Position numbers and translations under genes: made by a program
The notes under the pieces: model-generated
Seen by the model: only the letters and a program-made list of their open reading frames with translations
Database searches by the model: none
Told to the model about the DNA's origin: nothing
DNA from: Kiritimatiellia bacterium
Lineage (GTDB): Bacteria; Verrucomicrobiota; Kiritimatiellia; RFP12; UBA1067
NCBI GenBank assembly: GCA_017450695.1
Contig: JAFSTA010000168.1
Span: 17,826 to 81,825 of the forward strand
Direction: 5' to 3'
Length of the DNA stretch: 64,000 nt
In this document: positions 1,401 through 60,856 of the stretch, in pieces
Layout of the letters: every line of letters begins with the position of its first letter
Position numbering within the stretch: position 1 is the stretch's first letter

Positions 1401-1612
1401 TCTCCCACGGAGGCGCGGAGACACGGAGGGGAGACACGCCCGTCGCGTCCGCTATCGCAATACTACCGTTTCTCTTTTTCCGCACGTAGAGACGCGGAGG
1501 TCGCATGGGGCAATTGCAAAACCTCACGATTTTTCAACCACGGAACACACTGAATATACAGAAAATCGCAAGTTTTCCGAAAGAGCCATTCCGTGAGTTC
1601 CGTGTATTACTT
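1401..1612. repeat. Mosaic intergenic repeat block (module C copy, GAGAC(A/G)CGG words, E-type CCGTG words)
   Basis: 1428-1464 GGGAGACACGCCCGTCGCGTCCGCTATCGCAATACT is module C (6 copies in the window). 1536-1570 and 1596-1612 carry CACGGAACACAC / GTTCCGTGTATT words shared with 12331-12374, 28727-28762 and 41351-41400. A GCGGGC-GGGGCA-GCCCGC hairpin followed by a T run lies at 1624-1659. Confidence 0.6.
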
Positions 1613-1755
1613 CCAAAGCTACAGCGGGCGGGGCAGCCCGCGCTCTTCAAGCTTTTTTTGCCCATTGCCGTGGTTGTTTCCGATTCCGCTCACATACGGG
1701 TGAAAAACGGAGTTTCGCCTTGCGGGGGCAGGGATTCCTGCGTATGCGAAAGGGC

Positions 1756-4700
1756 TCACTTGAAGTAGTGGAGCTTGACGGGGGGATGCGCTTTCTTCTC
1801 CTTTTCCACTTCCTCTTGAAGAGTCCTGATTGCGGCATTCAACTGGACGTCCACCCCGGCCGCCCGTTGGTTTAGGTCATCCTCGATGAGGATATCGGGG
1901 ATGGCGCCGTGCTTTTCCATATCTTTCCCGTCCGGTAGGAACCATCCATGTGCAGGGATGCGGATCTTCCCGTAATCCAGAAGCGTGGAATCCACCGTGC
2001 CGATGACGCGCGCCCCGGTGGGTTCTCCGACGAGCTTCCCGCGCTTCATGGTTTTGATCGCATGCGAGAAGATTTCCCCGTTGCTGGCGGTCGTTTCGTT
2101 GCAAAGCACCACGATCGGCTTGTCCCAGACCGGATGCGCCATGTAGCCACGCAAGAGATATCCGGGCGTCGATCCGCGAAAGACGGCGTACGAGTGGGTC
2201 GTACAGCACAACACTTGCAGGATTCGGTCGGCGACAAAACCACCAGAGTTGTTCCGGACGTCGATAATCATTCCGTCACGCCCGTACCCTTCCGCGAAGA
2301 TATCCTCTTCGAACTGGTAGTAGTCCTTCATTTTCATCGCCGCGATGTCGAGATAGCCAAGCCGATTGTTGGAGATACGGTGAACCCGCTCCCGCAATTC
2401 GTCAGAATAGGCGCGCTTCATCAACTTGCGGATTTCGGGATATGTTGAGGTGCGGATTTTCACCTTCAGCGGTTCCGTGTCCTTGCGTTGAACGGTCAGT
2501 GTTACGATTGGTTGCGCGTATCCGTTCAGGACTTCGCTTTCATCTTGACCGGAGGTGACAGGGTGACCATCCACCTCCAGAATGATGTCACCCGGTTTCA
2601 GGTTCGCGGCGGATGGATCTGCCGGGCCACCGGGTACGACGTAACGGACACGCCACCCTTTTCCCTTGTGTTCGGTGTCGAAAAGAACGCCCAGATGTGC
2701 GGTCGTGACTGTCCACGACTGGAAGCATGGCGTCTTCTCCCACTCCTTCTCGTAAGTGGGCGTCGGGGAGAATCCGAGATGCGAGGAGTTCAATTCGCCG
2801 AGCATCATGAGCATGACACGGGTGAATACCGAGTAGGTCGGCGCATAACGGGCTGCAAGACGGTATTTCTCCTTGACAGCCTCCCAGTTTGCGCCGTGGA
2901 AATGATCGTCGTAAAACTGGTCCCGCAATTTTCCCCAGGCGGTCAGGAATGCCAGTTCCTGATAGTCGGAGAGGTCGGTCGTCTGGTAAACCTGGAAGGG
3001 GAATTTGGTTGTGAAGTGGGCGGGAAGCTCTCCGCTGATCCACAACGGCTTGTCACCTTTCTTCAGCCAGCCGACGATCTGACCGCTGGTGTCTGCCAGC
3101 TTTTCGGGTTTCAGTTTGTTCGGAATGCGGATCCGGTAAGTCACGCCGTTGTTCTGGTAGAGGAGCGCTCGGCTATCGGAGGCGAAATAAGGTAACTTTC
3201 CGGGGATTGGCAATCGGCGGACCCTTTTGTCCAGATCGGTGAAATCAATGACAAGGTCCTTCGGTTTCTCGGCGGCAGCCGCCTCTTGCTTTTTTCCTTT
3301 GGTGGAATCGTCCTCTTTCTTTTTCTGTTGCGCGACCTCAGCCTTGTCCTGGGGCGGCGCGTTGGTGGTGGCGACCTCAGCCTTGTCCTGGGGCGGCGCA
3401 TTGGTGGTGGCGGGTTTCGCATGAGGGGCAGAGGCGTTGTCGGCGACGAGCTTGCGCGCGTCGTCGAATTTCTTGGGAAGATCCTCTTTCGCTTCGTCTT
3501 CCGGATTCAGCCAGACGTAGAAAATGTTGTACAGTTCGGAATCGGGGCGGACACCCGCAAACGCAATCAGTTTTCCATCGGGAGACCAGCAGGGATTGAT
3601 ATCGCTCTTGTAGCATCGGGAGAGGTTGTACGGTTCGCGCGAACCGTTGATGGGAAAGATCCAGATGTCCTTGTTCCCATAGCAGTCGCCGATGGAGGCG
3701 ACGATCCACTTGCTGTCCGGCGACCACATGTAGTTCTCGGCGCGGGCGGCGGCGGGACCGGTCGCGGTTTCTTTCCCGTCCAGACCGCAGATGTGGATGC
3801 GCCCCAGCGAATCCTGCCAGGAAAGTTGTTTCCCGTCGGGGCTCAGCTTGAGGTTCTCCCTCCGCCAGCTGTCGGTGGTGAGGCGTTGTTTCTTGAAGGT
3901 GAAGTTCTCCCACCACTGGCGCTTTGCGTCCGTACGTTCAGCTTTCCAAATATCGACGGCATCGCCCCTGTCGGAGAGATAGAAAAGAGCCTTCCCGTCC
4001 TTGGAGAAGACGCACTCGCGTTCGTGCGTGCGCGTCTCCCCGTGGACCAGATGCGGAATCCGCACGACGGTATCCATCACGTAGAGGTCTCCACCTGTCG
4101 TGAAAGCCATTTGCATTCCATTCTCGGAAAAGGAGAGCGAACCGGTAGAGTCGTTGTTCCAGAGCGAGGTGTAAAACCGACGGCGCGTGGTGGGGCGGCG
4201 CGGGGCGGCGCGAGCTGTCAGGATGAGTTTGCGAGCTTCCTTTACCGGCGACCTCGGATCGATCCGGTAGAAGTCGAACCCCTTCCGGAAAATCATCGTC
4301 GTTCCGTCTCCGGAGAGCGTCGGCTGCATAACAGAATCGTCCTTGAAGAAAGTGATTTGGATCTCTTTTTTTTCGGTCAGGTCGTACTTCCAGACGTTCA
4401 GGCATCCGTCCGCCTCGGAGACGTAGTAGAAGCCTTTTCCATCGGGTGTCCAGATAGGGGATCTGGATTCAGTCTCACGTTTGAGCAGGCAGGTGAATCG
4501 CTTGGAGTCAATCGAATAGAGCCATAGCTGGCGGGCGAGCGAGGAATGCGTTCCCTTGCGGAAGATCGATTCTCCTTTCCGGGTGAACAGGAGTTGTTTC
4601 CCGTCCGGCGAAAGCGACGGGTCAAACCCGTGGTTGTCGAAATACACGTTAGGCGCGGCGCGCCGGTCTGCGGGGATTTCGGCAATCCGGCCCGCCAGCG

Positions 4701-5154: not shown

Positions 5155-5205
5155 GTCCTGTATTCTACACGAAATCGCCCCTGTTTGCTATCCCGAAATT
5201 CGCGC

Positions 5206-5640
5206 CAGCTGCGTAGCGACCGTGCCCTCGCCGTCGGCTTTCGGGGAAACTGGGTCAGATAAGTGGCGGTTGCACCGCCTAAGTGGTCTTGCGACCTAAA
5301 TGGGGCTGGCGCCACTAAGTTGACTTAGCCGCGAAGCGGCAGGCGTATGTCGTATGTCCTTTCCCTCACGCAGCGCGGACAAGTCGTTCAATCGGGGAAG
5401 CGACACTTGTCGCTTTTACGTGGCAACAGAACAGAATGAAGCGGCAGGATGAACTAAGAATGTAGAACTCGAAACTGATAGGCGAGCGTTATTGTATATT
5501 TGGACAACAACTTCAACAACGGATAGACAACTCGCTGGCGGTCGTCGCGCAACCGCGCGACGGTTCTTATCCGGCTTGCGGTTGCGAGCCGTCCGAATTC
5601 AAGGTTGTTCTCGATGTTGTTCCAGTTGTTTTCCGCTCAG
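5206..5640. repeat. Mosaic intergenic repeat block (modules A, TAAGT-punctuated hairpin array, B, X)
   Basis: A: 5206-5246 CAGCTGCGTAGCGACCGTGCCCTCGCCGTCGGCTTTCGGGG. Hairpin array: 5256-5340. B hairpin: 5394-5416 GGGGAAGCGACACTTGTCGCTTTT. X module: 5501-5640, near-identical in layout to 26625-26757. Confidence 0.85.
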
Positions 5641-9491: not shown

Positions 9492-9561
9492 ATGTCTCGC
9501 CCTTTCGCCACCATGTTACCATAATCAAACCTGCCTAGCCAAGCCTTTTAGCCGGGGAAGT

Positions 9562-9765
9562 GGGGCGCTACGCGCCAGCTGAGAAGCTGAGAAGTTGACT
9601 GGTTGAAAGGCTGAGAAGAACAAACATGCGACAGGTGACGGGGCATGTCGCACGTTCGCCGTTTCCGCATTTGGTGGCACGGCATAGTTTCCGCGCGTTT
9701 CTCAGCCACCCGCCACCCGCTACCACCTACCCGCCACCCGCTACCAGCCGCTAGCTACCAGCCAA
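9562..9765. repeat. Mosaic intergenic repeat block (GCTGAGAAG words, B-like hairpin, CCACCCGCTACC words)
   Basis: 9562-9618 GGGGCGCTACGCGCCAGCTGAGAAGCTGAGAAGTTGACTGGTTGAAAGGCTGAGAAG. 9627-9652 is a GCGACA...TGTCGC hairpin. 9700-9765 holds CCACCCGCCACCCGCTACCACCTACCCGCCACCCGCTACCAGCC words (reverse complement at 26411-26475). The block runs into the last codons and stop (9751-9753) of the adjacent CDS. Confidence 0.8.
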
Positions 9766-11805
9766 CAGCCTTTGGAAGGAGCGGGGAGGGATGGTGCCGC
9801 TTTGGTTGCGGTACCGCCAGGTGCGGGGTTCGGGTGTCGGGTTGCAGAGGAAGAGGGCGGTTTTGCCGTCGGGCGTTTTCCAGGCGGAGTGGATGACGGC
9901 GGGAAGGCGGCGGACCTCCGTTTTCATCAGCGCCTCTTTCGTGAAGATCATCCGCTGGCAGAACGAGACGTCGATCTCGTCGCAGGAGAATCCTTCGGGC
10001 GTGAGCATCTCGCCGTCGTAGAGGTAGGCCAGGTTGGCGTGGTAGAAACGCGCCGCCTCCAGCAGGAAATCGCGGACGGGCGCGTGGCGCGGGTCGGTGA
10101 AGATTTCCATTTTCACGTTGCAGACCATCGGCTGGCATCCCCAGATCACGGTGCGTCCCAGCTCGTAGTAGAACTGCACGGGATAGAGCGCGTTCCAATC
10201 CCGCTCGGCCTTCCATTTGTCTTCGGGCGGCCAGAGCGGATCCCACGGCATCGTGCCGTCGGGATGCGCGTAGTTCCCGAAGAGCGCATACCCGTGTCCG
10301 TGGTGGACGGCGGGAAAAACGGGGTAGATTCTGCCGAGCCATCCGCCCATCCGCTCGTTCGAGATCGTGTTGCAGACGATGCTCGCGTCGAAGAGATCCA
10401 GATAGGCTTCGGAGGCGAACTCGGTGCTGAGAACCAGATTCGGATGACGCGCCTTGATGGAACGGATGAAGGCGCGGTATCCCTCCGCCTGATAGTTCCC
10501 GTATCCCTTGATGTGGCGGTGCGCGGGATTGTAGCAGGCGTTGAGCGTCGCCCCTCCGATCATGTCCGTGTAAACCCCGTCGAGTCCCGTCGCGGCCAGC
10601 TTGTCGATCACCGCGCCCAGCCGGTTGAAGAACACGGTGTTCTCGCCGCACATGGTGACCAGTTCGTGCCGGTTGTACTTGTTGAAGACATGGCCGGCGA
10701 TCTTGCCGTCCTTCTTCACCACCGCGCTCTTCTCCGCGTCGGGGCACCAGCTCGCCGTGTTGCGGTCCCAGCACACGCCGTTGACGTAAACCTGCGCGTA
10801 AACCCCGTTCCGGTGGAGGTCGGCGACCGCTGCCCGGAACGCCTCTTCCCCTTCGCGAGGGGGCCAGAAATCGGGATAGTCCGTGTCATACGGATTGTGG
10901 TGCCACCAATACCAGTCGAGCGCGACGGGAATCTCCTTGCCGAGTCGTTTTTGGAGTTCCAGAACCGGAGGCACCACGTTGGTGATCGCACCCCGGTTCC
11001 ACACCCAGAGTCCGATGTTGCGGAGTTTGTCGGGCGTGGTTTTCGGACGGCTCCACTCCTGCTTCGCGCTCCATTTCTTGTAGTCCTGCGCCACGCCGAA
11101 CCAGCCGTCTTCCGTCGGTTTGTATCCGTAACGGTAGGGGACTTTGCCGCTCTCCGGTACGGAGTCACCCTGTCCCGGATGATACAACCCGCTGACAACC
11201 AAAGCACCTTTCTCCTTTGTGAGCCGGAAGCATTTGCCCGCATACCGTTCCGTGTCGCGCAGGTGCAAGCCGACGGTCAGGGTGTCGGTTACGGTCGCCG
11301 CCAAAACCGGGACGCCGGACACGACGGGGAAATTCTTCGTCCCCTTCGTCAACGTGCCGCCGTGTCCGATGCAGTATCCGCCGAAGACATACGGCACGTC
11401 CGGCCGGTTCGACGGGAACCGAAGTTGCGGAAAGACGATCTCCCGGACAAAAGCCCTGTGTTCAAATCCCGAATAGGAGAATTCGCCGAGCCAGACGCCT
11501 TGCTCGTCTTTGCGCCATTCGACATGGACGGAAAAGGTGTTGCCGCTCTGCCACGTAACATCCAACCGGTTTTCCTCCTCCTCCCGGTGGGTGATCGAAA
11601 GGTCGGTGTCGCGAATGACCTTGCCGTCCTCCAAAACGAGCTGCCACTTCTCGTAGCTTTCTTGGAATGCCTGGTCGAGACATGCGCGGGTAATCGGCGC
11701 GGACGGCTTGCCCGCGTCGGGCGCTTGCGCGACCGCACCAAACGGAACGAACCAAGAGAACGCCGCGCAGAGAGATAAGACGGCAAACAAAGAACAGTTT
11801 TTCAT
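9751..11805 (-). CDS. Secreted putative glycoside hydrolase, family unassigned (possibly DUF6259-like TIM barrel)
   Basis: Long ORF. Start chosen at ATG 11805 (MKNCSLFAVLSLCAAFSWFVPFGAVAQA) preceded by GGAGGAG. The Trp/Tyr/Asp-rich core (DWYWWHHNPYDTDYPDFWPP) sits in a glycan-enzyme neighbourhood. The product assignment is weak. Confidence 0.55.
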   Translation of the reverse strand: MKNCSLFAVLSLCAAFSWFVPFGAVAQAPDAGKPSAPITRACLDQAFQESYEKWQLVLEDGKVIRDTDLSITHREEEENRLDVTWQSGNTFSVHVEWRKDEQGVWLGEFSYSGFEHRAFVREIVFPQLRFPSNRPDVPYVFGGYCIGHGGTLTKGTKNFPVVSGVPVLAATVTDTLTVGLHLRDTERYAGKCFRLTKEKGALVVSGLYHPGQGDSVPESGKVPYRYGYKPTEDGWFGVAQDYKKWSAKQEWSRPKTTPDKLRNIGLWVWNRGAITNVVPPVLELQKRLGKEIPVALDWYWWHHNPYDTDYPDFWPPREGEEAFRAAVADLHRNGVYAQVYVNGVCWDRNTASWCPDAEKSAVVKKDGKIAGHVFNKYNRHELVTMCGENTVFFNRLGAVIDKLAATGLDGVYTDMIGGATLNACYNPAHRHIKGYGNYQAEGYRAFIRSIKARHPNLVLSTEFASEAYLDLFDASIVCNTISNERMGGWLGRIYPVFPAVHHGHGYALFGNYAHPDGTMPWDPLWPPEDKWKAERDWNALYPVQFYYELGRTVIWGCQPMVCNVKMEIFTDPRHAPVRDFLLEAARFYHANLAYLYDGEMLTPEGFSCDEIDVSFCQRMIFTKEALMKTEVRRLPAVIHSAWKTPDGKTALFLCNPTPEPRTWRYRNQSGTIPPRSFQRLLAGS

Positions 11806-11857: not shown

Positions 11858-12454
11858 ACGCTTCGCGGCTAAGTGCCCCTACGGGGCTAAGTGCGCTTCG
11901 CGGCTAAGTCACTTAGGCGGCGTTAGCCGCCACTTACTTCCTCCACCCATTCCTTGCCTATCAGTTCCGAGTTCTGCGCGGGACGAGACGGCGAGGGCAC
12001 CGTCGCTACGCAGCGGACGCGACGGAGCGCGTCCCAGAACTGGCGGCCATGCCGCCTTTCGTGTTCTTTCGTGTCCTGCGCCAGCGGGTTTTCGTGGTCG
12101 CGCGAAGCGCCACGCGTTGTCTCATGAGGAAATTGACACACCGTCGAAAAGCGACAGGAGTGTCGCTTCTCCGAAGAGAGGGGAAAATTCAATCGCTTCG
12201 CTTGAAATGGTTAAATGGTTAAATTGACGAGGCACAGAAATGCGGAGCGGATCAGACCGATTTAAAGCCGCGCCAGCGGCGATTTAACCATTTAACTATT
12301 TAACCATCCAAAGGTCGCGCGAAGCGCTAGATTCCGTGTGTTCCGTGTATTCCGTGGTTCAAATTGTCCAACAGAGAAAAGTTAAGTCACTTAGGCGGCG
12401 CCAGCCGCCACTTAGGGCGTCAGCCCACTTAGGCGGCATAGCCGCCACTTACAC
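11858..12454. repeat. Mosaic intergenic repeat block (two hairpin arrays, modules A, C, B, D, E)
   Basis: Hairpin arrays at 11858-11940 and 12381-12454. A (reverse) at 11987-12014, C (reverse) at 12013-12035, B (reverse) at 12146-12176. D long-inverted-repeat element at 12181-12312. E at 12331-12374 (ATTCCGTGTGTTCCGTGTATTCCGTGGTTCAAATTGTCCAACAG). Confidence 0.85.
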
Positions 12455-13282
12455 TTATGGTCTCCGCCCATTCCCCGCCTCATCGAACCCGAGGACGGCG
12501 ACGCCGTACTCGCGGGCGGTGGCGAGGATGCGTTCGAGCCATTCCGTTTTCATGTGGATGTGCTTCGCGTCGGGATGGATTCCGTGCGAGGTGAGGACGA
12601 AGACCTCATTCCGTTCGGCGCACCGCCTGAGGCACGCGCAGAGGTCTGCGATGTCGGTGTGGTAGGCCTCACCCGCAATGGCGGTGTCCAGACGGAAACG
12701 CGCGTGCAGTTCCGCCGCTGGAAAGAAGGCGCGGTCTGTCTCGTGTATGGGCCTCAAACCTGCCCGCCTCTCCCCCTTCGGGTCGTAAGGCGTGACGCCC
12801 GACAGTCCCCCGCGCACATGGGCGAAACCATGGGCGCGAAAGAGTTCGTCCGTCTCTTCCGTGCGGCGGCTGTTGGGATAGGCGAATGCCGTTACCGGGA
12901 TTCCCGCCGCACGGCACCCCGCCAGTTGGGGCGCGATCTCCGCCGACCAGTATCCGCTCACTCCGTTTGTGACCACGGCGGCATCCGCATTGAGGTGTTT
13001 CAATCCGTGCAACCCGATGGAATGTCCGTGTGCGCTCAGCTTCTTCAATGTCGTCGCCGCCTCTCCCTTGATCGGTCCGGTGACAAAGAACGTGACATGC
13101 GCCCCGTACTTCTCGAACAGGGGGATCGCCGTTTCCCAGTCGCGGAGATTCCTGTCATCGAAGGAGAGGATCAACGCCCCGTGCGTTCGCGCATTCGACC
13201 GTTCTGCCGACAGACAGACGCCCGGAATCGAAAGCGCAAGGAACGCCGTCAACAGCAGAAAGTTATGCGTGAGTCGGATCAT
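12455..13282 (-). CDS. Polysaccharide deacetylase (CE4 / NodB homology domain), secreted
   Basis: 275 aa with a signal peptide, then LILSFDDRNLRDWETAIPLFEKYGAHVTFFVTG and HGHSIGLHGLKH, which is the NodB-type motif pattern. Confidence 0.8.
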   Translation of the reverse strand: MIRLTHNFLLLTAFLALSIPGVCLSAERSNARTHGALILSFDDRNLRDWETAIPLFEKYGAHVTFFVTGPIKGEAATTLKKLSAHGHSIGLHGLKHLNADAAVVTNGVSGYWSAEIAPQLAGCRAAGIPVTAFAYPNSRRTEETDELFRAHGFAHVRGGLSGVTPYDPKGERRAGLRPIHETDRAFFPAAELHARFRLDTAIAGEAYHTDIADLCACLRRCAERNEVFVLTSHGIHPDAKHIHMKTEWLERILATAREYGVAVLGFDEAGNGRRP

Positions 13283-14264: not shown

Positions 14265-14267
14265 GGC

Positions 14268-16693: not shown

Positions 16694-16823
16694 GGGGGCT
16701 TCGCCCCCGAACCCCTGGCGCTTCGCGCCTAAGTCTCTTAGCCCCGCAGGGGCACTTAGAGCCGAAGGCTCACTTAAGCGCGAAACGCCACTTACTTGCC
16801 CCACTGAGGCGGCGTCAGCCGCC
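16694..16823. repeat. Array of six GC-rich mini-hairpins punctuated by TAAGT/ACTTA words
   Basis: The six hairpins are GGGGGC-TTC-GCCCCC, GGCGC-TTC-GCGCC, GCCCC-GCA-GGGGC, GAGCC-GAA-GGCTC, GCG-CGAAA-CGC and GGCGGC-GTCA-GCCGCC. They are separated by TAAGTCTCTTA / ACTTA / ACTTAA / CACTTACTT. The last hairpin (16808-16823) contains the rdgB stop codon in its loop. Confidence 0.85.
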
Positions 16824-36425: not shown

Positions 36426-36560
36426 CCGTAAACGAGATTGGCGGGAGGATGGGAAAATGGTAGAATGCGGGCGTGTTGCGTTGGTGGAGGGACGCCTTGT
36501 GTCTGGTTTCCGCAACGTGTGTCAACCACGGTGATTTCGCTGAAACACAAAGGAGGTGCT

Positions 36561-46481: not shown

Positions 46482-46525
46482 GGCAAGGGAAGTTTCATGA
46501 CCGTGACTTGAACGCGCTTGGTCGG

Positions 46526-46560
46526 CTTGCGGGACGGGGCGCCTTTGGCCCGTCCGCAAG
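46526..46560 (+). other. Strong GC-rich hairpin at the left edge of the methyltransferase island (possible U-tract-less terminator or boundary element)
   Basis: CTTGCGG(G)ACGGG - loop GCGCCTTTG - GCCCGTCCGCAAG gives 12 bp with one bulged G and no downstream T run. It lies between the coiled-coil gene stop (46481) and the methyltransferase RBS (46572). Confidence 0.4.
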
Positions 46561-46584
46561 CGATCACAGACAAGGAGAATACGG

Positions 46585-47652: not shown

Positions 47653-47955
47653 ATAACAACCGGATTTGTTCGCCGCTAACGCGGCTCACTGATGCGAGAA
47701 TGGCGAAGGCCGTTAGGCCTGAGCAAATCCGCTTGTTAAACACAAGCGAAACAATGAACAACAACCGGATTTGTTCGCCGCTAACGCGGCTCACTGATGC
47801 GAGAATGGCGAAGGCCGTTAGGCCTGAGCAAATCCGCTTGTTAAACACAAGCGAAACAATGAACAACAAACGGATTTGTTCGCCGCTAACGCGGCTCACT
47901 ATGCGAGAATGGCGAACGCCGTTAGGCGCGAGCAAATCCGTTTGTTGAACACAAA
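47649..47955 (+). repeat. Three tandem copies of a 105-bp hairpin-forming unit (between the methyltransferase stop and the GxxExxY gene)
   Basis: Units start at 47649, 47754 and 47859. Copies 1 and 2 differ at one position; copy 3 is diverged with a 1-nt deletion. Each unit has arms AACAACCGGATTTGTTCG / GAGCAAATCCGCTTGTT enclosing CTAAC...GTTAGGC. Copy 1 begins inside the methyltransferase stop codon. Confidence 0.9.
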
Positions 47956-47973
47956 CAAAGGAATGGAGGTTGT

Positions 47974-48423
47974 ATGATCCTCTACGAGGAAGAGACAAAT
48001 CGTATCATCGGCGCATGCATGGCTGTACACAACGAGTTGGGCAATGGATTCCTTGAAGCCGTTTATCAAGATGCTTTGGAGATTGAGTTTCGCGAACGAG
48101 CTATCCCCTACAGGCGCGAAGCGCATATACGAATATTTTATAAAGGGCATTTGCTCGACAAAGAGTATTACGCTGACTTCATTTGCTTTGACAAGATAAT
48201 CGTGGAATTGAAATGCGTGTCGCGTCTTGTGAATGCAAACAAAGCGCAAGTAATCAATTATCTGCACGGAACTGGACTCAAGGTCGGATTGCTTGTGAAC
48301 TTCGCTGAGGCATCGCTAAAGTGGGAGCGTCTCACAAATTTACGGAACATAAAGTCCCAAGAAGCAGCAACAAACGGATTTGCCCAGACCCAACCGTCTT
48401 TGCAATTTAGTGAGCGCCGTTAG
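47974..48423 (+). CDS. GxxExxY protein (PD-(D/E)XK-like, PDDEXK_3 / TIGR04256-type)
   Basis: 149 aa with RBS GGAGG at 47965-47969. The eponymous motif lies in HNELGNGFLEAVYQDAL (G-FL-E-AV-Y). Later YADFICFDKIIVELK matches the nuclease-fold core. Low GC (about 42-45% by eye). Confidence 0.8.
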   Translation: MILYEEETNRIIGACMAVHNELGNGFLEAVYQDALEIEFRERAIPYRREAHIRIFYKGHLLDKEYYADFICFDKIIVELKCVSRLVNANKAQVINYLHGTGLKVGLLVNFAEASLKWERLTNLRNIKSQEAATNGFAQTQPSLQFSERR

Positions 48424-48448
48424 GCGCGAACAAATCCGTTTGTTAAAA
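48369..48448 (+). repeat. Fourth, variant copy of the hairpin unit, spanning the GxxExxY stop codon
   Basis: The perfect 14-bp inverted repeat AACAAACGGATTTG (48369-48382) / CAAATCCGTTTGTT (48431-48444) has the same arms as copy 3 at 47859-47955. The inner GCGCCGTTAGGCGCG contains the TAG stop (48421-48423). The RBS of the next gene follows immediately. Confidence 0.85.
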
Positions 48449-48463
48449 CCAAGGAGCATCGAA

Positions 48464-49582
48464 ATGAACAGCAAGATGAAGATAAAGGAACACAAGATTC
48501 CCGTGCGGGAGGTGTTCGACGGGTATGTGGATTCGGCGGAGCTGGGCGTTCGCGGCTACGGCGGCAAGTTGAACATCCGTCCGGCGTTCCAGCGCGAGTT
48601 CGTTTACAAGCCCGCGCAGCGCGACGCGGTGATCGAGACCGTGCGGCAGGGGTTCCCGCTGAACGTCATGTACTGGGTGCGCAACGAGGAGGGCGGCTTC
48701 GAGATGCTCGACGGGCAGCAGCGGACTCTCTCCATCTGCCAGTACGTGAACAACGAGTTCAGCATCGACCACCACAAGTTCGAGAACCTGACGAAAGAGG
48801 AGCAGGAGGACATCCTCGATTACGAACTCACAATCTACATCTGCGAGGGCGAGGAGCGCGAGAAGCTGAAGTGGTTCGAGGTGGTGAACACCGCGGGCGA
48901 ACAGCTCAACGCGCAGGAACGCCGCAATGCGCAGTACACCGGCAGGTGGCTCCACGAGGCGAAGAAGCATTTCAGCAAGACGGGATGTGCGGCGGCGGCG
49001 ATCGGCGACAAGCTGCTGAACGGATCGGCCATACGTCAGGATTTCCTTGAAACGGCGCTTGCGTGGATTGCCGACCGCGACGGCGGTGACATCCTCGACT
49101 ACATGTCCGCGCATCAGCATGACGAAGACTGCTCCGACCTGTGGGGGTATTTCGAGAGCGTAATCAAGTGGGTCAAGGCAACGTTTCCCGTTCTGCGCGG
49201 TAAGTTGATGAAGGGGTTGCCGTGGGGCATATACTTCAACAGGTATGGGAATGAGAAACGCGACGCGGCGGCGTTGGAGAAGCGGATAACGCAACTTCTT
49301 CGCGACGATGAGGACGTGAACGACATAACGAACCAGCGCGGCATCTACGAGTATCTTCTCTCCGGCGACGAACGGCACTTGAGCATACGGCGCTTCTCCG
49401 ACAAGATGGCGCGGACGGCCTACGAACGGCAAGAGGGCAAATGCCAGAAGTGCGGCAAGGAGTTCGCCATCGAGGAAATGCAGGCCGACCACATCACGCC
49501 GTGGGCGAAGGGCGGCAAGACCGTCGCCGAGAACTGCCAGATGCTCTGCGCGGACTGTAATCGCCGCAAAGGAGGGGTGTAG
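48464..49582 (+). CDS. DUF262 (ParB/Srx-like, DGQQR motif) protein with C-terminal HNH endonuclease domain
   Basis: Start ATG 48464 (RBS AAGGAG at 48451-48456). The DUF262 signature is in FEMLDGQQRTLSICQY. C-terminal HNH: CQKCGKEF...ADHITPWAKGGKTVAENCQMLCADCNRRKG. Confidence 0.8.
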   Translation: MNSKMKIKEHKIPVREVFDGYVDSAELGVRGYGGKLNIRPAFQREFVYKPAQRDAVIETVRQGFPLNVMYWVRNEEGGFEMLDGQQRTLSICQYVNNEFSIDHHKFENLTKEEQEDILDYELTIYICEGEEREKLKWFEVVNTAGEQLNAQERRNAQYTGRWLHEAKKHFSKTGCAAAAIGDKLLNGSAIRQDFLETALAWIADRDGGDILDYMSAHQHDEDCSDLWGYFESVIKWVKATFPVLRGKLMKGLPWGIYFNRYGNEKRDAAALEKRITQLLRDDEDVNDITNQRGIYEYLLSGDERHLSIRRFSDKMARTAYERQEGKCQKCGKEFAIEEMQADHITPWAKGGKTVAENCQMLCADCNRRKGGV

Positions 49583-49586
49583 GAGC

Positions 49587-50711
49587 ATGACCGAGTTCGG
49601 AGAGTACAAGCGGGCGCCGGAGCCGGAGAAGCGTGAGAAGGCGATTGTCTGGCGTACAGCGATCGGTCTCCAGAAGGTTGACGGTCTTACGACCTCGGAG
49701 TATCTGCGTGAGACGGCGCGGCGCAATATCGAAGGTGAGATCACGATAGAAGAGAGCGGGGGGCTGATAGCCGAATACTACAAGTCCAAATCCGTCCGCG
49801 CATCGGCGGCGAAGACGCGTACGGACGAGGCTGATATTGTCTCGCAACGCATCGCCGCAATCCTCTCCGAACCGACATTCTCATTGACTGTTCCGTCCTA
49901 TCTGGCGATTCACCGAAAGTTGTTCCACGGGGTGTTTCCCCGCGCTGGAAAAATCCGCGACTACAACATCACGAAAGCGGAATGGGTCTTGGACAAAGAC
50001 ACTGTCCGCTACGAAAGTGCGGATGTAATCGCAGATACGCTGGAATACGAGTTTTCGCGACAAAGAAACTTCAGTTACAAGGGACTAGGTGTGTTGGAGA
50101 CGATTTCGCACGTGGCCCGCTTTCTTGCGGACGTGTGGCAGATTCATCCTTTCGGGGAAGGTAACACGCGAACGACAGCCGTCTTCGCAATCAAGTATCT
50201 GCGTTCGTTTGGTTTTCCAGTCACCAATGAATTGTTTGCGGAGAACGCCTGCTATTTCCGGAACGCCTTGGTCCGAGCAAACTATACGAATGTTCCGCGA
50301 GGCGTACATCGGACATTCTTCTGTTTGGAACGTTTCCTGGTAAACCTGTTGGCTGACGGAAAGTACGAACTCAAAAGCCGCTGCTTAAAAATTGGAGCGG
50401 AAGAGGTTCCGGATTCGCTTGTTCCCTCTAAAAAGGAACAAGAAGGGGAACAAGTAGAGTCGCCGCTGGGGGCGGTTATTCCCAGAGGGGTGAGGAGGCT
50501 TGTCAAGGTTCTGAAGAAGGAAATGTCTGTCGTCGAAATGATGATCGCGTTGAAGCTTGCCGTGCGGCGGAACTTTCTGGAGAAATACCTTTCTCCGGCA
50601 TTGGAGGCTGGTCTTGTAGAAATGACGCAGCCCGATTCGCCGCGTTCGCCCACGCAGAAATACCGTCTGACGGCGAAGGGACTTGAAATGCAGCTGGAAG
50701 GAGCAGTGTAA
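49587..50711 (+). CDS. Fic/DOC family protein with VbhA-like N-terminal segment and C-terminal winged-helix-like domain
   Basis: Fic motif region HPFGEGNTRTTAV (50145-50183), a variant of HxFx(D/E)GNGRxxR. Starts 4 nt after the DUF262-HNH stop with AGGAG upstream. The C-terminal segment MSVVEMMIALKLAVRRNFLEKYLSPALEAGLVEMTQP resembles a wHTH. Confidence 0.85.
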   Translation: MTEFGEYKRAPEPEKREKAIVWRTAIGLQKVDGLTTSEYLRETARRNIEGEITIEESGGLIAEYYKSKSVRASAAKTRTDEADIVSQRIAAILSEPTFSLTVPSYLAIHRKLFHGVFPRAGKIRDYNITKAEWVLDKDTVRYESADVIADTLEYEFSRQRNFSYKGLGVLETISHVARFLADVWQIHPFGEGNTRTTAVFAIKYLRSFGFPVTNELFAENACYFRNALVRANYTNVPRGVHRTFFCLERFLVNLLADGKYELKSRCLKIGAEEVPDSLVPSKKEQEGEQVESPLGAVIPRGVRRLVKVLKKEMSVVEMMIALKLAVRRNFLEKYLSPALEAGLVEMTQPDSPRSPTQKYRLTAKGLEMQLEGAV

Positions 50712-55162: not shown

Positions 55163-55480
55163 TAGGGGCGTTTCGCGCCAGCTAAAAACGGGAGGGGCGC
55201 GCCCCGTCGCGTCCGCAATGCGGAACACGCTTTGCCTCTCAGCTCCGAGTTTGAAGCGATGCGTCACTGAAATGCGGGTAAGTTTGTCTCGCCTCACACC
55301 GTGGGAGGGGCGCGCTCCGTCGCGACCGCAACGTTTTCCCGGATTGTCCGGAATATCCGGAATGTCCGGTTTTTCCTGCTTATCCTGCTTACCCCGCCTC
55401 TCAGCTTCCCCGCTTCTCAGCTGGCGCGTAGCGCCCCCGCCTTTCAGCTTGCCCGGCCAACTGATCGGCGTAGCGCCCGA
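55163..55480. repeat. Mosaic intergenic repeat block between convergent argJ and ilvB (two C modules, CCGGAAT mini-palindromes, CTTCTCAGC and GCTTACCC words)
   Basis: C at 55190-55223 and 55303-55333. 55339-55369 reads CCGGATTGTCCGGAATATCCGGAATGTCCGG. 55371-55395 reads TTTTCCTGCTTATCCTGCTTACCCC. CTCTCAGCTTCC/CTTCTCAGCTGGCGCGTAGCGCCC lies at 55398-55435. The layout parallels 60765-60856. Confidence 0.85.
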
Positions 55481-57214
55481 TCAATTGAAGTTGATCATGG
55501 CGGTGACGGGCTGGCCGGGGGGGATCATGGGGCAGACGTTGGCGGTCGGCTCCACGAGGCATTCGATCAGCCATGTCTGGTTGCTGGCGAGCGCCCTTTC
55601 CAGCGCGGCGGCAACTTCCGTTTCGGTCGAGACGCGACAGGAGTGCGCCCCGTGCGCCTCCGCCAGCTTCACGAAATCGGGCAGGTAGATCGGACGGTCT
55701 TCAATCCGCTCGTTGGGGTTGCGTCCGTGCTGCGAGAGCGTGACGCCCATGCAACGGTTGTGGTAGAACAACTCTTGCCACTGTCGCACATTGCCGAGGT
55801 AGGTGTTGTTCAGGATCACGAAGACGATGGGCAGTTTGTGCTCCACGGCGACGACGAGTTCCTGGAAGTTCATCTGCGCTCCGCCGTCGCCCATGACGCT
55901 GACGACACGTTTGTTCGGGCAACCGAGCTGGGCGCCGATCGCGGCGGGCAGACTGTACCCCATCGTGCCGAGTCCGCCGGAGGTGAGGAACTGGCGGGGA
56001 CGCGAACAGGGATAGTACTGGGCGGACCACATCTGGTTTTGCCCCACGTCGGTGACGAGGATCGCTTCGCCCTTCGTCAATCGGTGAATCTGCTCGATGA
56101 CGAATTGGGGCATCAGCGCCTCGGACTGCTTGCGATAGAGATACGGGAAACGCTTCTTCCACTGCGCAACCCGTTCCAGCCAGGACGCATGGTCAGTCGG
56201 TTTGACAAGCGGCAGGACGCGGGAAAGGACATTCTTCACGTCGGCGCACATTCCGAGGTAGGGGGTGATGCTTTTGCCGATGGAGGAGCAGTCGATATCC
56301 ACATGGACGATTTTCGCGCGGGGCGCGAATTCGGAGACCTTGCCGATCACGCGATCGTCAAAGCGGGCGCCCATCGCCAGCAGGAGGTCGCAATGCGCGA
56401 GCGCCTGGTTGGCGGCGACCGTTCCGTGCATACCGATCATCCGCAGGTCGAGCGGATCGTCGGCGGGGAATGCGCCCAGTCCCATCAGCGTCTCGCAGAC
56501 GGGGATGTTCGCGCGGTGCGCCAAGGCGGAGACCTCGTCTGCCGCCGAACCGGAGATGACGCCCCCGCCCACATACAGGAGAGGGGATTCCGAAGCGTTG
56601 ATCAGCCCCGCGAGCCGTTCGATCACCGTGTCATCCACCGTCCTTGTCTCCGGCATGTAGGAGCGGAACTTCACTTCGTCAGGCGTTCTCCGATCCGTGA
56701 GGGCTTGCTGGATGTTTTTCGGGATGTCGATCACGACGGGACCAGGTTTCCCGGTGGTGGCGATGTAAAAAGCCTTCTTGATGATGGCGGGAAGCTCATC
56801 GACATCGCGGACGAGGAAATTGTATTTGGTGATCGGGCGGGTCATGCCCAGGACATCGGCCTCCTGAAAGGCGTCGTTGCCGATGCTCTCCAGGGCAACC
56901 TGTCCGGTGATGCACACCAGGGGAATGCCGTCCATATTGGCGGTGGCGAGTGCGGTGACGGTGTTGGTGGCGCCAGGACCGGAGGTGACGAGGCAACATC
57001 CCGGCTTGCCCGTGGCGCGGGCATACCCGTCCGCCATGTGGCAGGCGCCCTGCTCGTGGCGGGACAGGATAAAGTGCAGGGGGGCGTCGTAGAGGCAATC
57101 AAAGATATCGATCACCGTACCGCCGGGGTAACCGAAAAGCGTGTCGCAACCCGCTTCGAGCAAGCCGTCAATGACGCATTGCGCGCCAGATCGTTTTTTA
57201 CTGCCAGTATCCAT
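55481..57214 (-). CDS. ilvB: Acetolactate synthase large (catalytic) subunit, biosynthetic type (ThDP-dependent)
   Basis: SGAQCVIDGLLEAGCDTLFGYPGG, GPGATNTVTALATANMDGIPLV and the ThDP motif GGLGTMGYSLPAAIGA...GDGGAQMNFQEL. Start is ATG 57214 (GGAG 9 nt upstream) or alternatively ATG 57229. The track ORF start (57367) is an upstream run-on. Confidence 0.88.
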   Translation of the reverse strand: MDTGSKKRSGAQCVIDGLLEAGCDTLFGYPGGTVIDIFDCLYDAPLHFILSRHEQGACHMADGYARATGKPGCCLVTSGPGATNTVTALATANMDGIPLVCITGQVALESIGNDAFQEADVLGMTRPITKYNFLVRDVDELPAIIKKAFYIATTGKPGPVVIDIPKNIQQALTDRRTPDEVKFRSYMPETRTVDDTVIERLAGLINASESPLLYVGGGVISGSAADEVSALAHRANIPVCETLMGLGAFPADDPLDLRMIGMHGTVAANQALAHCDLLLAMGARFDDRVIGKVSEFAPRAKIVHVDIDCSSIGKSITPYLGMCADVKNVLSRVLPLVKPTDHASWLERVAQWKKRFPYLYRKQSEALMPQFVIEQIHRLTKGEAILVTDVGQNQMWSAQYYPCSRPRQFLTSGGLGTMGYSLPAAIGAQLGCPNKRVVSVMGDGGAQMNFQELVVAVEHKLPIVFVILNNTYLGNVRQWQELFYHNRCMGVTLSQHGRNPNERIEDRPIYLPDFVKLAEAHGAHSCRVSTETEVAAALERALASNQTWLIECLVEPTANVCPMIPPGQPVTAMINFN

Positions 57215-57327
57215 CGTTTGATTCTCCATGCCTGCAAGATTGGTTCGGTAGTTGGGTGGTTCGGCGGTTGGGCAATCGATTGCAGTCGATCGCTTTCGAT
57301 CACGATCGATTCTACAATACTGCCAAC

Positions 57328-57368
57328 AAAAAAACGTGTTGGGCGAAGATTGACATACGCCCAACACG
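57328..57368 (-). terminator. Rho-independent terminator downstream of plsX
   Basis: On the minus strand, the 11-bp perfect stem CGTGTTGGGCG / CGCCCAACACG (57358-57368 / 57335-57345) with a 12-nt loop is followed by seven U (plus-strand A run 57328-57334). It begins 21 nt after the plsX stop. Confidence 0.8.
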
Positions 57369-57388
57369 CCCTTTGCGCCGAGGCATCG

Positions 57389-58474
57389 TCAGAGGTTTTT
57401 GGCTACGGCCTCCGCGGCGGCGGCGTTCGCCTCTTCCTCCTTCGCGGCGTTTTGGGCGGCGGTCATTTCCGCGATTTTCTTCTCGATCGCGCCCGCGACG
57501 TTGTTCTGCGAAGCTGCCGCCCCCGCGATAATCGCGTGGAAAATCGCGCTGCTGTGAGAGGAGCCGTGGGTGATAATCACCGTGTTGGGGACTCCCAGCA
57601 GGGGTGCGCCGCCGTAGATTTCGGGATCCATCTTGCGTTTCAGGGCACGGAAGGCACCGTGCAACAAGAGGGCACCGAACATCCGGACGGGATGACGGTA
57701 GAATTCGCGCTTCATCCAGTAACCAACGGCGTGCGCGACGCTCTCGGTCGTCTTCAGCACGACGTTCCCGACGAATCCGTCGCAGACCACAACGTCCGTC
57801 TTTCCCAAAAAGAGATCGTGGCCCTCTACGTTTCCGCGGAAGGAGATATCCGGAATCTTCTGGATGAGGGGGAACGCTTTCTTGGTCATTTCGTTTCCCT
57901 TGCAATCCTCCGTTCCGATACTCAGCAGTCCGACCAGGGGGAGGGTTCGCTTCAAGACGGCGTGAGAATAAACGGATCCCATGACGGCGAACTGGGCGAG
58001 CCACTCCTCGTGGCAGTCCGTGTTCGCGCCGGCGTCCAGCAGCAAGAGAGGGCGCTTCGGCTGGCGTGTCGGCAGAACGGTGGCGATCGCGGGGCGGATC
58101 ACGCCCTTGATCCGGCCGAGGTGGAATACCGCAGAGGCCGCCACCGCGCCCGAATTCCCGGCGGAGACGAAAGCGTCCGCCTCCCCGCGCTTCACCATGT
58201 CCATCGCCACGTTGATGGAACAATTCTTCTTTTTGCGGACAGCGACCGCGGGCGGTTCGTCCATGTCGATCTGCTCGGGGGCGTGGACGATCTTCAGGCG
58301 GGAAAGATCCGCCTTCGGATACTTCGCCAGCTCCGTTCGGATGACCGGCTCGTCCCCGACCAGATAGACGCACTCGATGGTGTCCTGCAAATTGGCGGCG
58401 GCATCCACCGCGCCGTGTACGATCTCGTACGGCGCGTTGTCGCCGCCCATCACGTCTAGAGCGATGCGCGTCAT
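57389..58474 (-). CDS. plsX: Phosphate acyltransferase PlsX
   Basis: MTRIALDVMGGDNAP..., NSGA and GNVVLKT are typical PlsX motifs. The gene directly abuts rpmF (no gap), which is a conserved linkage. Confidence 0.92.
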   Translation of the reverse strand: MTRIALDVMGGDNAPYEIVHGAVDAAANLQDTIECVYLVGDEPVIRTELAKYPKADLSRLKIVHAPEQIDMDEPPAVAVRKKKNCSINVAMDMVKRGEADAFVSAGNSGAVAASAVFHLGRIKGVIRPAIATVLPTRQPKRPLLLLDAGANTDCHEEWLAQFAVMGSVYSHAVLKRTLPLVGLLSIGTEDCKGNEMTKKAFPLIQKIPDISFRGNVEGHDLFLGKTDVVVCDGFVGNVVLKTTESVAHAVGYWMKREFYRHPVRMFGALLLHGAFRALKRKMDPEIYGGAPLLGVPNTVIITHGSSHSSAIFHAIIAGAAASQNNVAGAIEKKIAEMTAAQNAAKEEEANAAAAEAVAKNL

Positions 58475-58666
58475 CTACTTTTCCGCGTCAGCTTTCACTG
58501 TCAGGACTTTGCGACCGTTGTACATCCCGCAGGACGGGCAAGCATGGTGCGATTGCATCGGCGCACCGCAATTCGGACACGCGCTGACGGAAGCGACGAC
58601 CGCCTTGACCTGTCCGACGCGCTGACGGACTTTTTGTTTCGACTTCTTTTTCTTTGGCTCTGCCAT
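58475..58666 (-). CDS. rpmF: 50S ribosomal protein L32 (zinc-ribbon form)
   Basis: 63 aa: MAEPKKKKSKQKVRQR...CPNCGAPMQSHHACPSCGMYNGRKV. Conserved position between yceD and plsX. Confidence 0.9.
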   Translation of the reverse strand: MAEPKKKKSKQKVRQRVGQVKAVVASVSACPNCGAPMQSHHACPSCGMYNGRKVLTVKADAEK

Positions 58667-58676
58667 AGTCCTACAC

Positions 58677-59745: not shown

Positions 59746-60398
59746 GCTTCCCTCCGCCATATCACCAGCCTTGTCTTGCCGTACACCCGGTCCCGGATCG
59801 GCTCCCATCCTTCCACCGCCTCCGCATTCAGCTCGGCGGGCATCTCCGCCACGAAGTACCCTCCGGCCTGCAAGACCTCGTTCTCTTTCGCCGCCCGCAA
59901 CATCGCGGCGAAACCGTTGTTCCGCGCGTCCTCGTAGGGCGGGTCGGCGTACAGCACCTTCGCGTTCCGTCCCTTGCCGCCTTGCGCGAGCCAAGCCGTC
60001 GCGTCGGCGATGACCAGCTCCGTGCCGGGATAGCGGTCGGGTAGGGGAATCGACGGAATCTGGCGCGGATGGATTTTTTTCGCGTGCAGAACGCCGCGTC
60101 CCGGATCGGGTTGCGCCGCCTGTGCGGACGGTCCCGCCAGCTCCAGGAAATTCTCGTAAATCAGGCGGGCATTCTGCACGTTCTTCTCAATCCAGGTCAC
60201 GCCGCCAGCGCCCCGGCTGAGCGCGTCCAACCCCACGGCACCGCTCCCGCCGAAGAGGTCGATCCAATGCGCCTCCGCCACGGACTCCGCGAGAATGGAA
60301 AACAGAGCCTCCCGCACCCAGTCCTGGGTCGGTCTGATCTGATCGCCCGGCGGCGTCTTGATCCGCCTGCCGCACCATGTTCCGCCTGTTATCCGCAT
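59742..60398 (-). CDS. rsmD: 16S rRNA (guanine966-N2)-methyltransferase RsmD
   Basis: MRITGGTWCGRRIKTPPGDQIRPTQDWVREALFSIL, LFGGSGAVGLDALSRGA and ADPPYE. The rsmD-coaD pairing is conserved. Confidence 0.85.
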   Translation of the reverse strand: MRITGGTWCGRRIKTPPGDQIRPTQDWVREALFSILAESVAEAHWIDLFGGSGAVGLDALSRGAGGVTWIEKNVQNARLIYENFLELAGPSAQAAQPDPGRGVLHAKKIHPRQIPSIPLPDRYPGTELVIADATAWLAQGGKGRNAKVLYADPPYEDARNNGFAAMLRAAKENEVLQAGGYFVAEMPAELNAEAVEGWEPIRDRVYGKTRLVIWRREA

Positions 60399-60605
60399 TG
60401 TCTCGCTTCACCGTTTCTTTTCCCGCAGTGGGAAAAAACCATTATGCCATTTTTCCCCTGTCAGTCAAGCAGAAAAGGGGAGCGTGAAGCGGCGTGTCAA
60501 GCCGGTTCGGCGAGTTTGCTCGCCGCTTTGCGGTAGCGTGTGGAGCAAAAGGGACAAAAGCGACTGAAGAGATCAAAGGGATTCAGCCGCCGGGAGTAAG
60601 CGAAA

Positions 60606-60856
60606 AGGTGAAATGGTTCAATCGCCGCTGACGCGGCTTTCAATCGACCTGATCCGCTCGTCGGCAGTTCGTCAATTGAATCATTTCACTATTTAAAGCG
60701 AAGCGATTTAACTTTCACCCCTCCCTCATCGGGGAAGCGACACTCTTGTCGCTTCATGGCGAATGGGGAACACGCCCCGTCGCGACTGCCACGTGTACCC
60801 GGAATATCCGGAATGTCCGGATTATCCGGCTTAACACGCTTCTCAGCTTGCCCCGC
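60606..60856. repeat. Mosaic intergenic repeat block (D reverse, B, C, CCGGAAT mini-palindromes, CTTCTCAGC word)
   Basis: D (reverse, shortened) at 60606-60720. B at 60731-60755 GGGGAAGCGACACTCTTGTCGCTTC. C at 60765-60793. 60799-60829 reads CCGGAATATCCGGAATGTCCGGATTATCCGG. CTTCTCAGCTTGCCCCGCC ends exactly at the stop codon of the metallophosphoesterase gene (60857). Confidence 0.85.

Follow-up and report, generated by a model that had tools for sequence, protein, structure and literature searches.

The bacterial interspersed mosaic elements (BIMEs) of enterobacteria are defined by the alternation of Y and Z repetitive extragenic palindromes (REPs) with the motifs S, L, s, l and r, and by the binding of integration host factor, gyrase or DNA polymerase I. 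Within the Planctomycetes-Verrucomicrobia-Chlamydiae (PVC) group, Opitutus terrae harbors multiple families of REPs with a GTAG head, which form head-to-head dimers 0-2 bp apart and also occur within genes (Di Nocera et al. 2013, PMC3733652). In that description, head-to-tail REP arrays are rare, some heads are degenerate (GTGG), and REP dimers inside open reading frames (ORFs) are often N-terminal (PMC3733652). The Rickettsia palindromic elements (RPE), cited in the same work, are inserted in frame in genes. Here, we analyze the intergenic spacers of a 64-kb stretch of contig JAFSTA010000168.1 (hereafter the window; about 60% G+C), a chromosomal segment from a rumen or gut member of the Kiritimatiellae. 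The gaps between its genes are a real, dense intergenic mosaic of the REP/REPIN type in a rumen Kiritimatiellae genome.

Repeats found by self-BLAST cover 1845 of the 7808 intergenic nucleotides (24%), against 246 of the 56193 genic ones (0.4%). The 17 spacers of the window have 263 distinct 12-mers in common, with 14 spacers taking part; dinucleotide shuffling yields 3.8 on average (13 at most), and genic segments matched in size and free of overlap yield 9.9 on average (24 at most). By our tally from the Tandem Repeats Finder table, 20 of the 26 rows with a period of 7-19 nt and a score of at least 40 fall in spacers (12% of the sequence). A fuzzy scan with the modules returned about 75 intergenic matches versus nine weak genic ones. 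Recurrence of modules between spacers is far above chance. The original prediction, that the spacers reuse the same short modules in both orientations, is borne out by these counts, and all of its modules (A, B, C, D, E, the words, the mini-palindromes, the TAAGT arrays and X) are present where it had placed them. Its wording, "almost every long spacer", was too generous: about 12 of the 17 spacers of at least 100 nt carry modules, and the remaining ones do not. Those at 20156-20456, 46482-46584, 57215-57388 and 58475-58676 are devoid of them, and 47653-47973 has a different repeat of 105 bp.

The sequence of the source genome in view amounts to about 80 kb, namely the window and about 16 kb that adjoin it. 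In the spacers of the adjoining DNA (where L139 7460-7849 corresponds to about 64.4-64.8 kb in window numbering), E, D, B1, A, W1-W3 and T are present again, and modules recur in other Kiritimatiellae genomes; the repeats are thus not confined to the window, and such confinement had been named as a possible refutation. All eight copies of B and all five of A counted in these 80 kb are extragenic, numbers that would extrapolate to hundreds per genome. No Rfam family matches the modules: the covariance models gave no match to the window at gathering thresholds and none at E <= 1. Repeat-rich regions can be mis-assembled, and contigs carrying genes for REP-associated tyrosine transposases (RAYTs) are typically short; an assembly artefact or a purely local duplication could in principle mimic such a mosaic. 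Yet eight contig pieces taken from independent assemblies of several ENA and Logan samples match the window at 99.8-100% identity, spacers included. The window sequence is therefore no assembly artefact, and with modules also outside it and in other genomes we regard this explanation as having a negligible chance of being right.

The elements of the window are as follows.

1401-1610, unstranded: degenerate C-like hairpin (1425-1455) and CACGGAG / TTCCGTG words (E1-like, 1538-1605).
5199-5248, plus strand: A, the GTAG-headed hairpin GCGTAG-CGACCGTG-CCCT-CGCCGTCG, then the head TCGGGGAA.
5255-5340, plus strand: T, four small GC hairpins punctuated by TAAGT/TAAAT; part of a segment of about 145 nt between duplicated TCGGGGAA inside an A-B composite.
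5390-5452, plus strand: B1 REP hairpin and truncated inverted B2, a tail-to-tail doublet.
5502-5640, plus strand: X, ACAAC / GTTGT word arms with a GC hairpin core; paralogue of 26626-26765.
9561-9620, plus strand: H hairpin (GGCGC-TAC-GCGCC), AGCTG and a GCTGAGAA stutter (W1).
9700-9770, minus strand: W4, an array of words reading GGTAGCGGGTGG on this strand; related in inverted orientation to 26400-26475.
11858-11945, minus strand: T multi-hairpin element.
11954-12040, minus strand: C-A head-to-head dimer joined directly to the linker CGCGCAGAACTCGGAACTGATAGGCAA; the "empty site" relative to the B doublet at 26503-26574.
12146-12176, minus strand: B1 REP hairpin abutting D.
12184-12316, plus strand: D long hairpin.
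12334-12378, plus strand: E, a TTCCGTG stutter and AAATTGTCCAACAGAG.
12383-12454, minus strand: T, immediately after the stop codon of gene 12455-13282.
16694-16830, minus strand: T, five hairpins, the first overlapping the stop codon of gene 16815-17423.
26400-26475, plus strand: W4 word array.
26476-26576, plus strand: A, then the 66-nt inverted B1/B2 doublet (TCGGGG...CCCCGA), the "filled site"; DNA fold of the doublet z -3.5.
26626-26765, plus strand: X, second copy, inside the mis-extended ORF 26560-28455.
28430-28514, plus strand: H overlapping the last eight codons of a gene, then a 9-nt stutter of GGGTAAGC / GTTAAGC (W2).
28627-28697, minus strand: preA-A-B1 composite, a 96% inverted copy of 26476-26526.
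28726-28763, plus strand: E.
36183-36240, plus strand: T, starting about a dozen nt past the stop of gene 35155-36171.
36295-36428, plus strand: D, second copy; 93 nt (12177-12269 versus 36288-36380) are 94% identical.
38373-38512, plus strand: two H (GGCGGC-TGAC-GCCGCC and AGCTGAGAAGC), a W1 stutter and T, directly after a stop codon.
38531-38577, plus strand: C hairpin and inverted W2 words.
41351-41400, minus strand: E (plus an E2 fragment, 41610-41625).
41437-41600, minus strand: D, third copy, with a B1 REP (41515-41545, plus strand) in its core.
41735-41789, plus strand: Z, a 55-nt non-coding module, 94.5% identical to the non-syntenic positions 2539-2593 of L080 and so better conserved than the genes of the two genomes (82-87%).
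55167-55219, plus strand: preA hairpin and C.
55303-55437, minus strand: composite H-W1-W2-W3-C (C reverse-complemented), after the stop of gene 55481-57214.
60598-60716, minus strand: the last of the four D copies and the most diverged; its stem bears compensatory changes.
60727-60756, plus strand: B1 REP hairpin directly next to D, folding as DNA at -10 kcal/mol (z -6.6).
60762-60850, minus strand: composite W1-W2-W3-C (C reverse-complemented), after the stop of gene 60857-62257; paralogue of L139 7500-7740.

The likeness to REPs and BIMEs had been proposed from density and combinatorial reuse, and module B shows that it pointed in the right direction: in relatives, B hairpins flank five distinct genes for RAYT-like Y1 transposases. 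In a set of 74 copies (30 distinct) from the window and at least seven other Kiritimatiellae metagenome-assembled genomes (MAGs) or contigs, B has the consensus TCGGGG-AAGCGRCR-CTCN-YGYCGCTT, with TCGGGG as its head and a stem of 8-9 bp. Among these copies, which had been pre-filtered for stem complementarity, compensatory changes at stem pairs 12-21 (GC 16, AU 14) and 14-19 (AU 23, GC 6) set apart two variants, B1 and B2. As DNA, B1 folds into a 9-bp stem at -10 kcal/mol (z -6.6) and B2 folds at -11.2 kcal/mol (z -5.7). The window has B at 5392, 41517 and 60729, reverse copies at 12149 and 28627, and a reverse B2 at 26548. The two variants are usually paired as inverted doublets, as at 26503-26574, 5390-5452 and most related loci; singletons stand at 12146, 28627, 41515 and 60727. 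B is also the most widely shared family, the others being nearly species- or genus-specific. Scanning a genome collection with a 15-mer of B gave 103 loci, mostly chance and about 13 real, with extended matches of 26-57 nt in seven rumen or gut Kiritimatiellae MAGs.

One related locus, L097, encodes a protein of 208 residues with the HUH motif PNHVHVLF and a match to Pfam Y1_Tnp (E 1.3e-9, above the cut-off), and B hairpin doublets bracket its gene on both sides. This protein has over a thousand homologues, several of which were named "REP element-mobilizing transposase RayT" by the Joint Genome Institute (JGI). Four further distinct homologues (67-77% identical) are all B-flanked, which brings the Y1_Tnp proteins to five, 67-99% identical to one another. 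B lies on both sides of the gene in L097, L125, L133, L134, L144 and L145, and upstream only in L146, where the contig ends at the gene. Directly upstream of the start codon stands B2 followed by GCTATAAT in L133, L134 and L145/L146, and ATGCTATACT is found there in L144. For the three proteins scanned (P0005, P0001 and P0007), NCBIfam ranks "REP-associated tyrosine transposase" first (E 3e-18 for P0005), and in the PDB P0005 matches only E. coli TnpA-REP (4ER8), at E 3.6e-4 and in an alignment that pairs HVH and YI..N. The RAYT-like proteins also carry a long insertion or N-terminal region. The suggested check for a RAYT gene succeeded beside B in relatives and found none in the roughly 80 kb of the source genome. 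Beside the RAYT genes the head of B stutters, with three copies of ACCGCACCTCGGGG in L133 and a half-stem duplication in L097. These short duplications that include the head suggest that the word stutters of the mosaic arise at hairpin heads. Long, regular B1/B2 doublet arrays stand near the RAYT gene of a related MAG (L125, 1-400 and 3800-4000) with a period of about 84 nt and nine hairpins per 400 nt; they are a BIME-like cluster.

Modules A and C bring in the GTAG head. A (5206 and 26476; reverse at 11987 and 28645) has a GCGTAG head (GCGTAG-CGACGG...) and an 8-bp stem, with a DNA fold of -11.6 kcal/mol (z -2.5). C has copies at 1425, 38531, 55190, 55303 and 60765 and a reverse one at about 12013. 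Its reverse complement and A can be aligned along the core TGCG..GCGACGG.GC, and the head of C is degenerate (GGTC/GGAC). The two abut head to head at 11985-12040, at L139 150-260 and on metagenome contigs. A and C represent a single GTAG-type hairpin family in two diverged versions of opposite orientation, which pair as tight head-to-head dimers. Scanning metagenomes with a 27-mer of A gave 18 loci, none of them orthologous to the window, and tblastn found no RAYT in these A-bearing loci; none was seen beside A or C.

On contigs of other organisms, the C-A dimer (A alone in L124) stands in frame right after the ATG in six genes (L107, L109, L117, L118, L120 and L124, the last equal to L110 and L119). 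Most have a purine-rich stretch of the AAGGAG or GGAGG type before the ATG, resembling a ribosome-binding site, which L124 lacks. A promoter-like leader, AAATGCTAAATTAT, is common to L107, L118 and L120. The dimer encodes the hydrophobic and cleavage regions of a putative signal peptide (..GRAALVAAAICVATAPSPS[F/W]A; an example of the encoded peptide is MSSILPKNGRAALVAAAICVATAPSPSWA), and the frame then continues for 880-2660 residues in L109, L117, L118 and L124, with the contig ending soon after in L107 and L120. A and C might, then, be scattered relics of the 5' ends of genes, that is, of DNA coding for signal peptides. We find this very improbable and rejected it as the main account. In-frame dimers are known from these other contigs only: no copy in the window is in frame with a gene, and the secreted proteins of the window have unrelated signal peptides. 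Further, the peptide profile matches only 14 tiny ORFs among 5.8 billion proteins, and one locus (L111) packs four copies of A, some in each orientation, into about 200 nt of non-coding DNA. Finally, the DNA likeness between the six genes breaks off sharply at the borders of the dimer, as expected for an inserted element.

The remaining modules are larger than had been thought. The original prediction counted about 11 independent modules, many of which prove to be fragments of fewer, larger composites. D occurs in four copies (12184 and 36295; reverse-complemented at 41437 and 60598), and is a long hairpin in which a 21-bp stem of AAATGGTT/AACCATTT words encloses a GC hairpin core; the minimum free energy of the copy at 12184-12316 as RNA is -40.3 kcal/mol (z -3.8). 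E is found at 12334 and 28726 and, reverse-complemented, at 41351. The TAAGT arrays are a single multi-hairpin element, T, made of two to five small GC hairpins in conserved order, whose stems vary with pairing kept. X has ACAAC/GTTGT word arms around a GC-rich core, as read from the alignment and not from a fold; it was taken to be 135 bp, and the two copies align over 109 nt at 81% identity (5502-5610 versus 26626-26734). Word repeats, CCGGAATATCCGG arrays and TAAGT hairpin arrays were likewise confirmed in the window, with a correction to the proposed word period of about 11 bp, which is 8 nt for GCTGAGAA and AAATGGTT and 9 nt for GGGTAAGCT and CCGGAATAT. A string of H (GGCGGC-TGAC-GCCGCC and AGCTG), W1, W2, W3 and C keeps the same order at 55303-55437, 60762-60850 and L139 7500-7740, and an A-F-E backbone, in which F is TTTCGTGGTCGCGCGAAGCGCC between A and E, recurs at 28654-28763, 41353-41440 and L080 72-170. 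Linkers such as GGCAACAGAATG recur between hairpins of alternating orientation.

Two pairs of composites bracket genes. The spacers 60399-60856 and L139 7460-7849, of about 300 nt with the same module order and orientation, flank a block of two genes, one for a metallophosphatase and one for an LVIVD-repeat protein. The 51-nt A-B composites at 26476-26526 and 28635-28685 are 96% complementary and lie inverted on either side of a single AAA-ATPase_like (PF09820) gene; this arrangement might serve as an inversion substrate or might mean that the gene was acquired as a unit. The longest ORF of this gene begins with GTG at 26560 and reads through B2 and X, with the Pfam domain starting at residue 119. 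The true start is probably the ATG at 26888, and the ORF 26560-28455 is probably mis-extended. The genes had been called free of modules except at their extreme 3' ends. This holds for the H hairpin in the last eight codons of 26888-28455, and it fails for a W1 array of the GCTGAGAA type at 21644-21685, which stands in frame in the 843-residue ORF 20457-22988, before a pectate-lyase-like domain (..HFSASQLPSFSGG..). That array may be a former spacer absorbed by gene fusion.

Copies of the composites differ by the presence of other modules. When paralogous composites are aligned, the junction of A and its linker is whole at 11954-12013 and split by the 66-nt B doublet (TCGGGG...CCCCGA) at 26503-26574. 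The composite 5195-5640 has an extra T segment of about 145 nt between duplicated TCGGGGAA. B1 lies within D at 41515-41545 and next to it at 12146 and 60727. These filled and empty sites among paralogous copies show that the elements inserted into one another.

Turnover between genomes is seen in a relative. The DnaJ of the window shares 97% identity with its counterpart in "MAG: Kiritimatiellae bacterium" (GCA_017544725.1, isolate RGIG6996, from sheep rumen), of which L080 and L140 are pieces. L140 keeps the block fucosidase-grpE-dnaJ-rsmE-GH106-hypothetical-C10 peptidase-argJ with genes 82-87% identical, and its spacers cannot be aligned with those of the window and differ in length (the gap between the C10 peptidase gene and argJ is 53 versus 364 nt by the contigs' gene calls). 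The L140 spacers reuse H, W1, W2 and C-like pieces. In another relative, whose DnaJ identity is 71%, the spacers are compact and the vocabulary is wholly absent.

These orthologous spacers bear on a reading in which the hairpin and word arrays are cis-acting elements of the host (3'-untranslated-region stabilizers, terminators without a U tract, processing sites or protein-binding arrays), selected site by site, so that the likeness between spacers comes from common function and not from mobility. By our tally from the coordinates, 13 of the 15 H/T arrays closely follow a stop codon and are in sense orientation. The arrays are well folded, and the stems of T units vary while pairing persists. 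Stop codons are present in many of the words, and with a period of 8 nt, TGA or TAA falls in each of the three frames. Against this stands the complete lack of conservation of orthologous spacers where genes are 82-87% identical. The modules are also found in either orientation, in a spacer between divergent genes (L139 7460-7849), inside one another and around transposase genes, and terminator-like sites (a hairpin and a T run) are at chance level, 20 versus 23.1 +/- 4.2. We judge a purely cis-acting origin to be unlikely. The narrower idea that H/T arrays are intrinsic terminators was rejected because terminator-like sites are at chance level, and no T runs follow the hairpins. A single canonical intrinsic terminator, with a 13-bp GC-rich stem and TTTTTTT, does follow plsX (about 57320-57372, minus strand); thus the organism uses U-tract terminators, unlike the H/T arrays. 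Their sense placement after stop codons may reflect a secondary use as RNA structures at 3' ends.

We propose, and consider somewhat probable, that the spacers are layered deposits of several small, non-autonomous, hairpin-forming families of the REP/REPIN type. The B family would be mobilized in trans by a RAYT-like HUH/Y1 tyrosine transposase, an enzyme that, to judge from IS200/IS605 and TnpA-REP, would work on hairpins of single-stranded DNA and whose gene would presumably be present somewhere in the source genome. The composites (T, D, X, the H-W1-W2-W3-C string and the A-F-E backbone) would each be copied as a unit. New elements would insert beside or into older ones, often at hairpin heads, and short tandem stutter duplications would arise next to hairpins. 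Some H and T arrays may have been retained secondarily as RNA structures at 3' ends.

Several results weigh against this proposal. Only B is tied to a transposase. No such gene is associated with T, D, X, the word strings or A/C, the last of which are connected to the system solely by GTAG-type anatomy, and B itself is without the GTAG head that defines classical RAYT-linked REPs, having TCGGGG in nearly all 74 copies. The covariation count for B came from copies that were pre-filtered for stem complementarity. The RAYT-like proteins score 60-66 bits, below the curated NCBIfam REP_Tyr_transpos cut-off of 80. A tblastn search found no RAYT in the window and the adjoining 16 kb or so. L134 comes from the same ENA sample as a window-identical contig, and its RAYT gene was considered as the source organism's own and set aside; the loop variant of B there, ATG, is absent from the window (TTG/CTG), and L134 may therefore belong to a co-resident relative. 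Among strains 99.8-100% identical, no module differs in presence or absence, the sole difference being a copy number of the 105-bp repeat, and there is thus no direct evidence of recent movement. Lastly, the copies of composites could also have spread by recombination or segmental duplication and not by transposition.

This last point can be widened into an alternative in which a RAYT moved only B, and the other modules spread within larger segments (by recombination, gene conversion or segmental duplication) or as miniature inverted-repeat transposable elements (MITEs) of a transposase other than Y1, for example a DDE enzyme. Composites of 130-300 nt do recur in fixed internal order (5195-5640 versus 26465-26765, and 60399-60856 versus L139 7460-7849), the order of the A-F-E backbone is kept at its three sites, and D and X have long inverted arms like the terminal repeats of MITEs. 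For neither D nor X was a target-site duplication, an empty site or a parent element found. No DDE transposase is among the annotated genes of the window (not all ORFs having been scanned), and the anatomy of A/C, with GTAG head, short stem and head-to-head dimers, is that of a REP and not of a MITE. We hold this alternative, too, to be improbable. A more specific version of the layered-deposit reading is possible, and we offer it tentatively: a RAYT clade specific to rumen Kiritimatiellae would drive the TCGGGG-headed REPs, and the host would have put hairpin repeats to use more than once, the C-A dimers as signal-peptide cassettes of large surface proteins and the head-to-tail TAAGT arrays as polar RNA elements at 3' ends.

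The genes between the spacers are ordinary chromosomal ones, with many glycoside hydrolases, grpE-dnaJ-rsmE, argJ, an asnS/lysS-type tRNA synthetase, plsX and a small defence island; no tRNA genes were found in the window. The cumulative GC skew climbs steadily from 0 to about 57 kb and then drops. This turn, at about 57000-58000, may be a replication terminus or origin, or merely a local change of gene strand. A tricorn-like S41 peptidase gene contains an in-frame, perfect 39-bp tandem duplication (3332-3412; 2.1 copies, 97% identical). The defence-type island, of about 4.2 kb (46585-50711), encodes an EcoRI-like adenine methyltransferase, a PDDEXK_3 protein, a GmrSD-HNH nuclease and a Fic protein. 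The syntenic position of L140 is without it, and there the C10 peptidase gene comes right after the gene of 273 residues. The 105-bp tandem repeat (47648-47961), itself a long hairpin, has three copies in the window versus two in the otherwise identical contig L001. A partial inverted copy at 48359-48452 lies on the opposite side of the PDDEXK_3 gene, and the repeats therefore bracket that gene.

These results extend REP/RAYT biology to an uncultured rumen lineage of the PVC group. A RAYT-type gene flanked by hairpins without GTAG bears on how these enzymes recognize their substrates. Such repeats break metagenome assemblies (among the RAYT homologues listed, most are on contigs of only about 1 kb) and mislead gene callers, as with the ORF at 26560 and the tiny ORFs that match the A/C peptide profile. 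The spacers are also fast-evolving markers, with complete turnover between genomes whose genes are about 85% identical. If the in-frame dimers at signal-peptide positions are real, they would be a case of selfish repeats that supply functional parts of proteins.

The modules had not been recognized as a described family. No earlier description of such repeats was found for Kiritimatiellae, and Rfam is silent; the kind of element is nevertheless already known, for example from Opitutus terrae (PMC3733652). With the BIMEs of enterobacteria and the NIMEs and Correia-dRS3 elements of Neisseria (in part PMC2817692) the mosaic has in common palindromes that alternate with short conserved motifs, both their order and their orientation varying. 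The sequences are unrelated, and long word-armed hairpins and 8-9 nt stutters set the present elements apart; the likeness to BIMEs is one of general outline only, hairpins in alternating orientation with recurring linkers. As with the RPE, palindromic repeats are tolerated in frame (C-A dimers in signal peptides, the W1 array in ORF 20457-22988). Unlike the RPE, the coding copies of the dimer occupy the signal-peptide position of large surface proteins and come from other organisms' contigs only.

The GTAG REPs of Opitutus terrae and the PVC group are similar in having several families per genome, head-to-head pairing as in C-A, REP dimers inside ORFs, and degenerate heads, here GGTC/GGAC and possibly GTGG in T units. 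This likeness is one of anatomy and not of compared consensus sequences, and stem and loop sequences may differ. The hairpins described here are further distinguished by being set in larger composites with word stutters, and by T units that form head-to-tail arrays. Relative to the REP/REPIN-RAYT systems (REPINs of Pseudomonas fluorescens, REPs of E. coli; PMC2817692, PMC3116915, PMC3479197), the B head is TCGGGG and not GTAG, the proteins fall below the NCBIfam cut-off and have a long insertion or N-terminal region, the host belongs to the Kiritimatiellae, and the RAYT is found in relatives and not in the visible part of the source genome. In common with those systems, the spacers have dense, short, extragenic imperfect palindromes, inverted doublets and stem variants within a family, and in relatives B hairpins flank a RAYT-type Y1/HUH gene.

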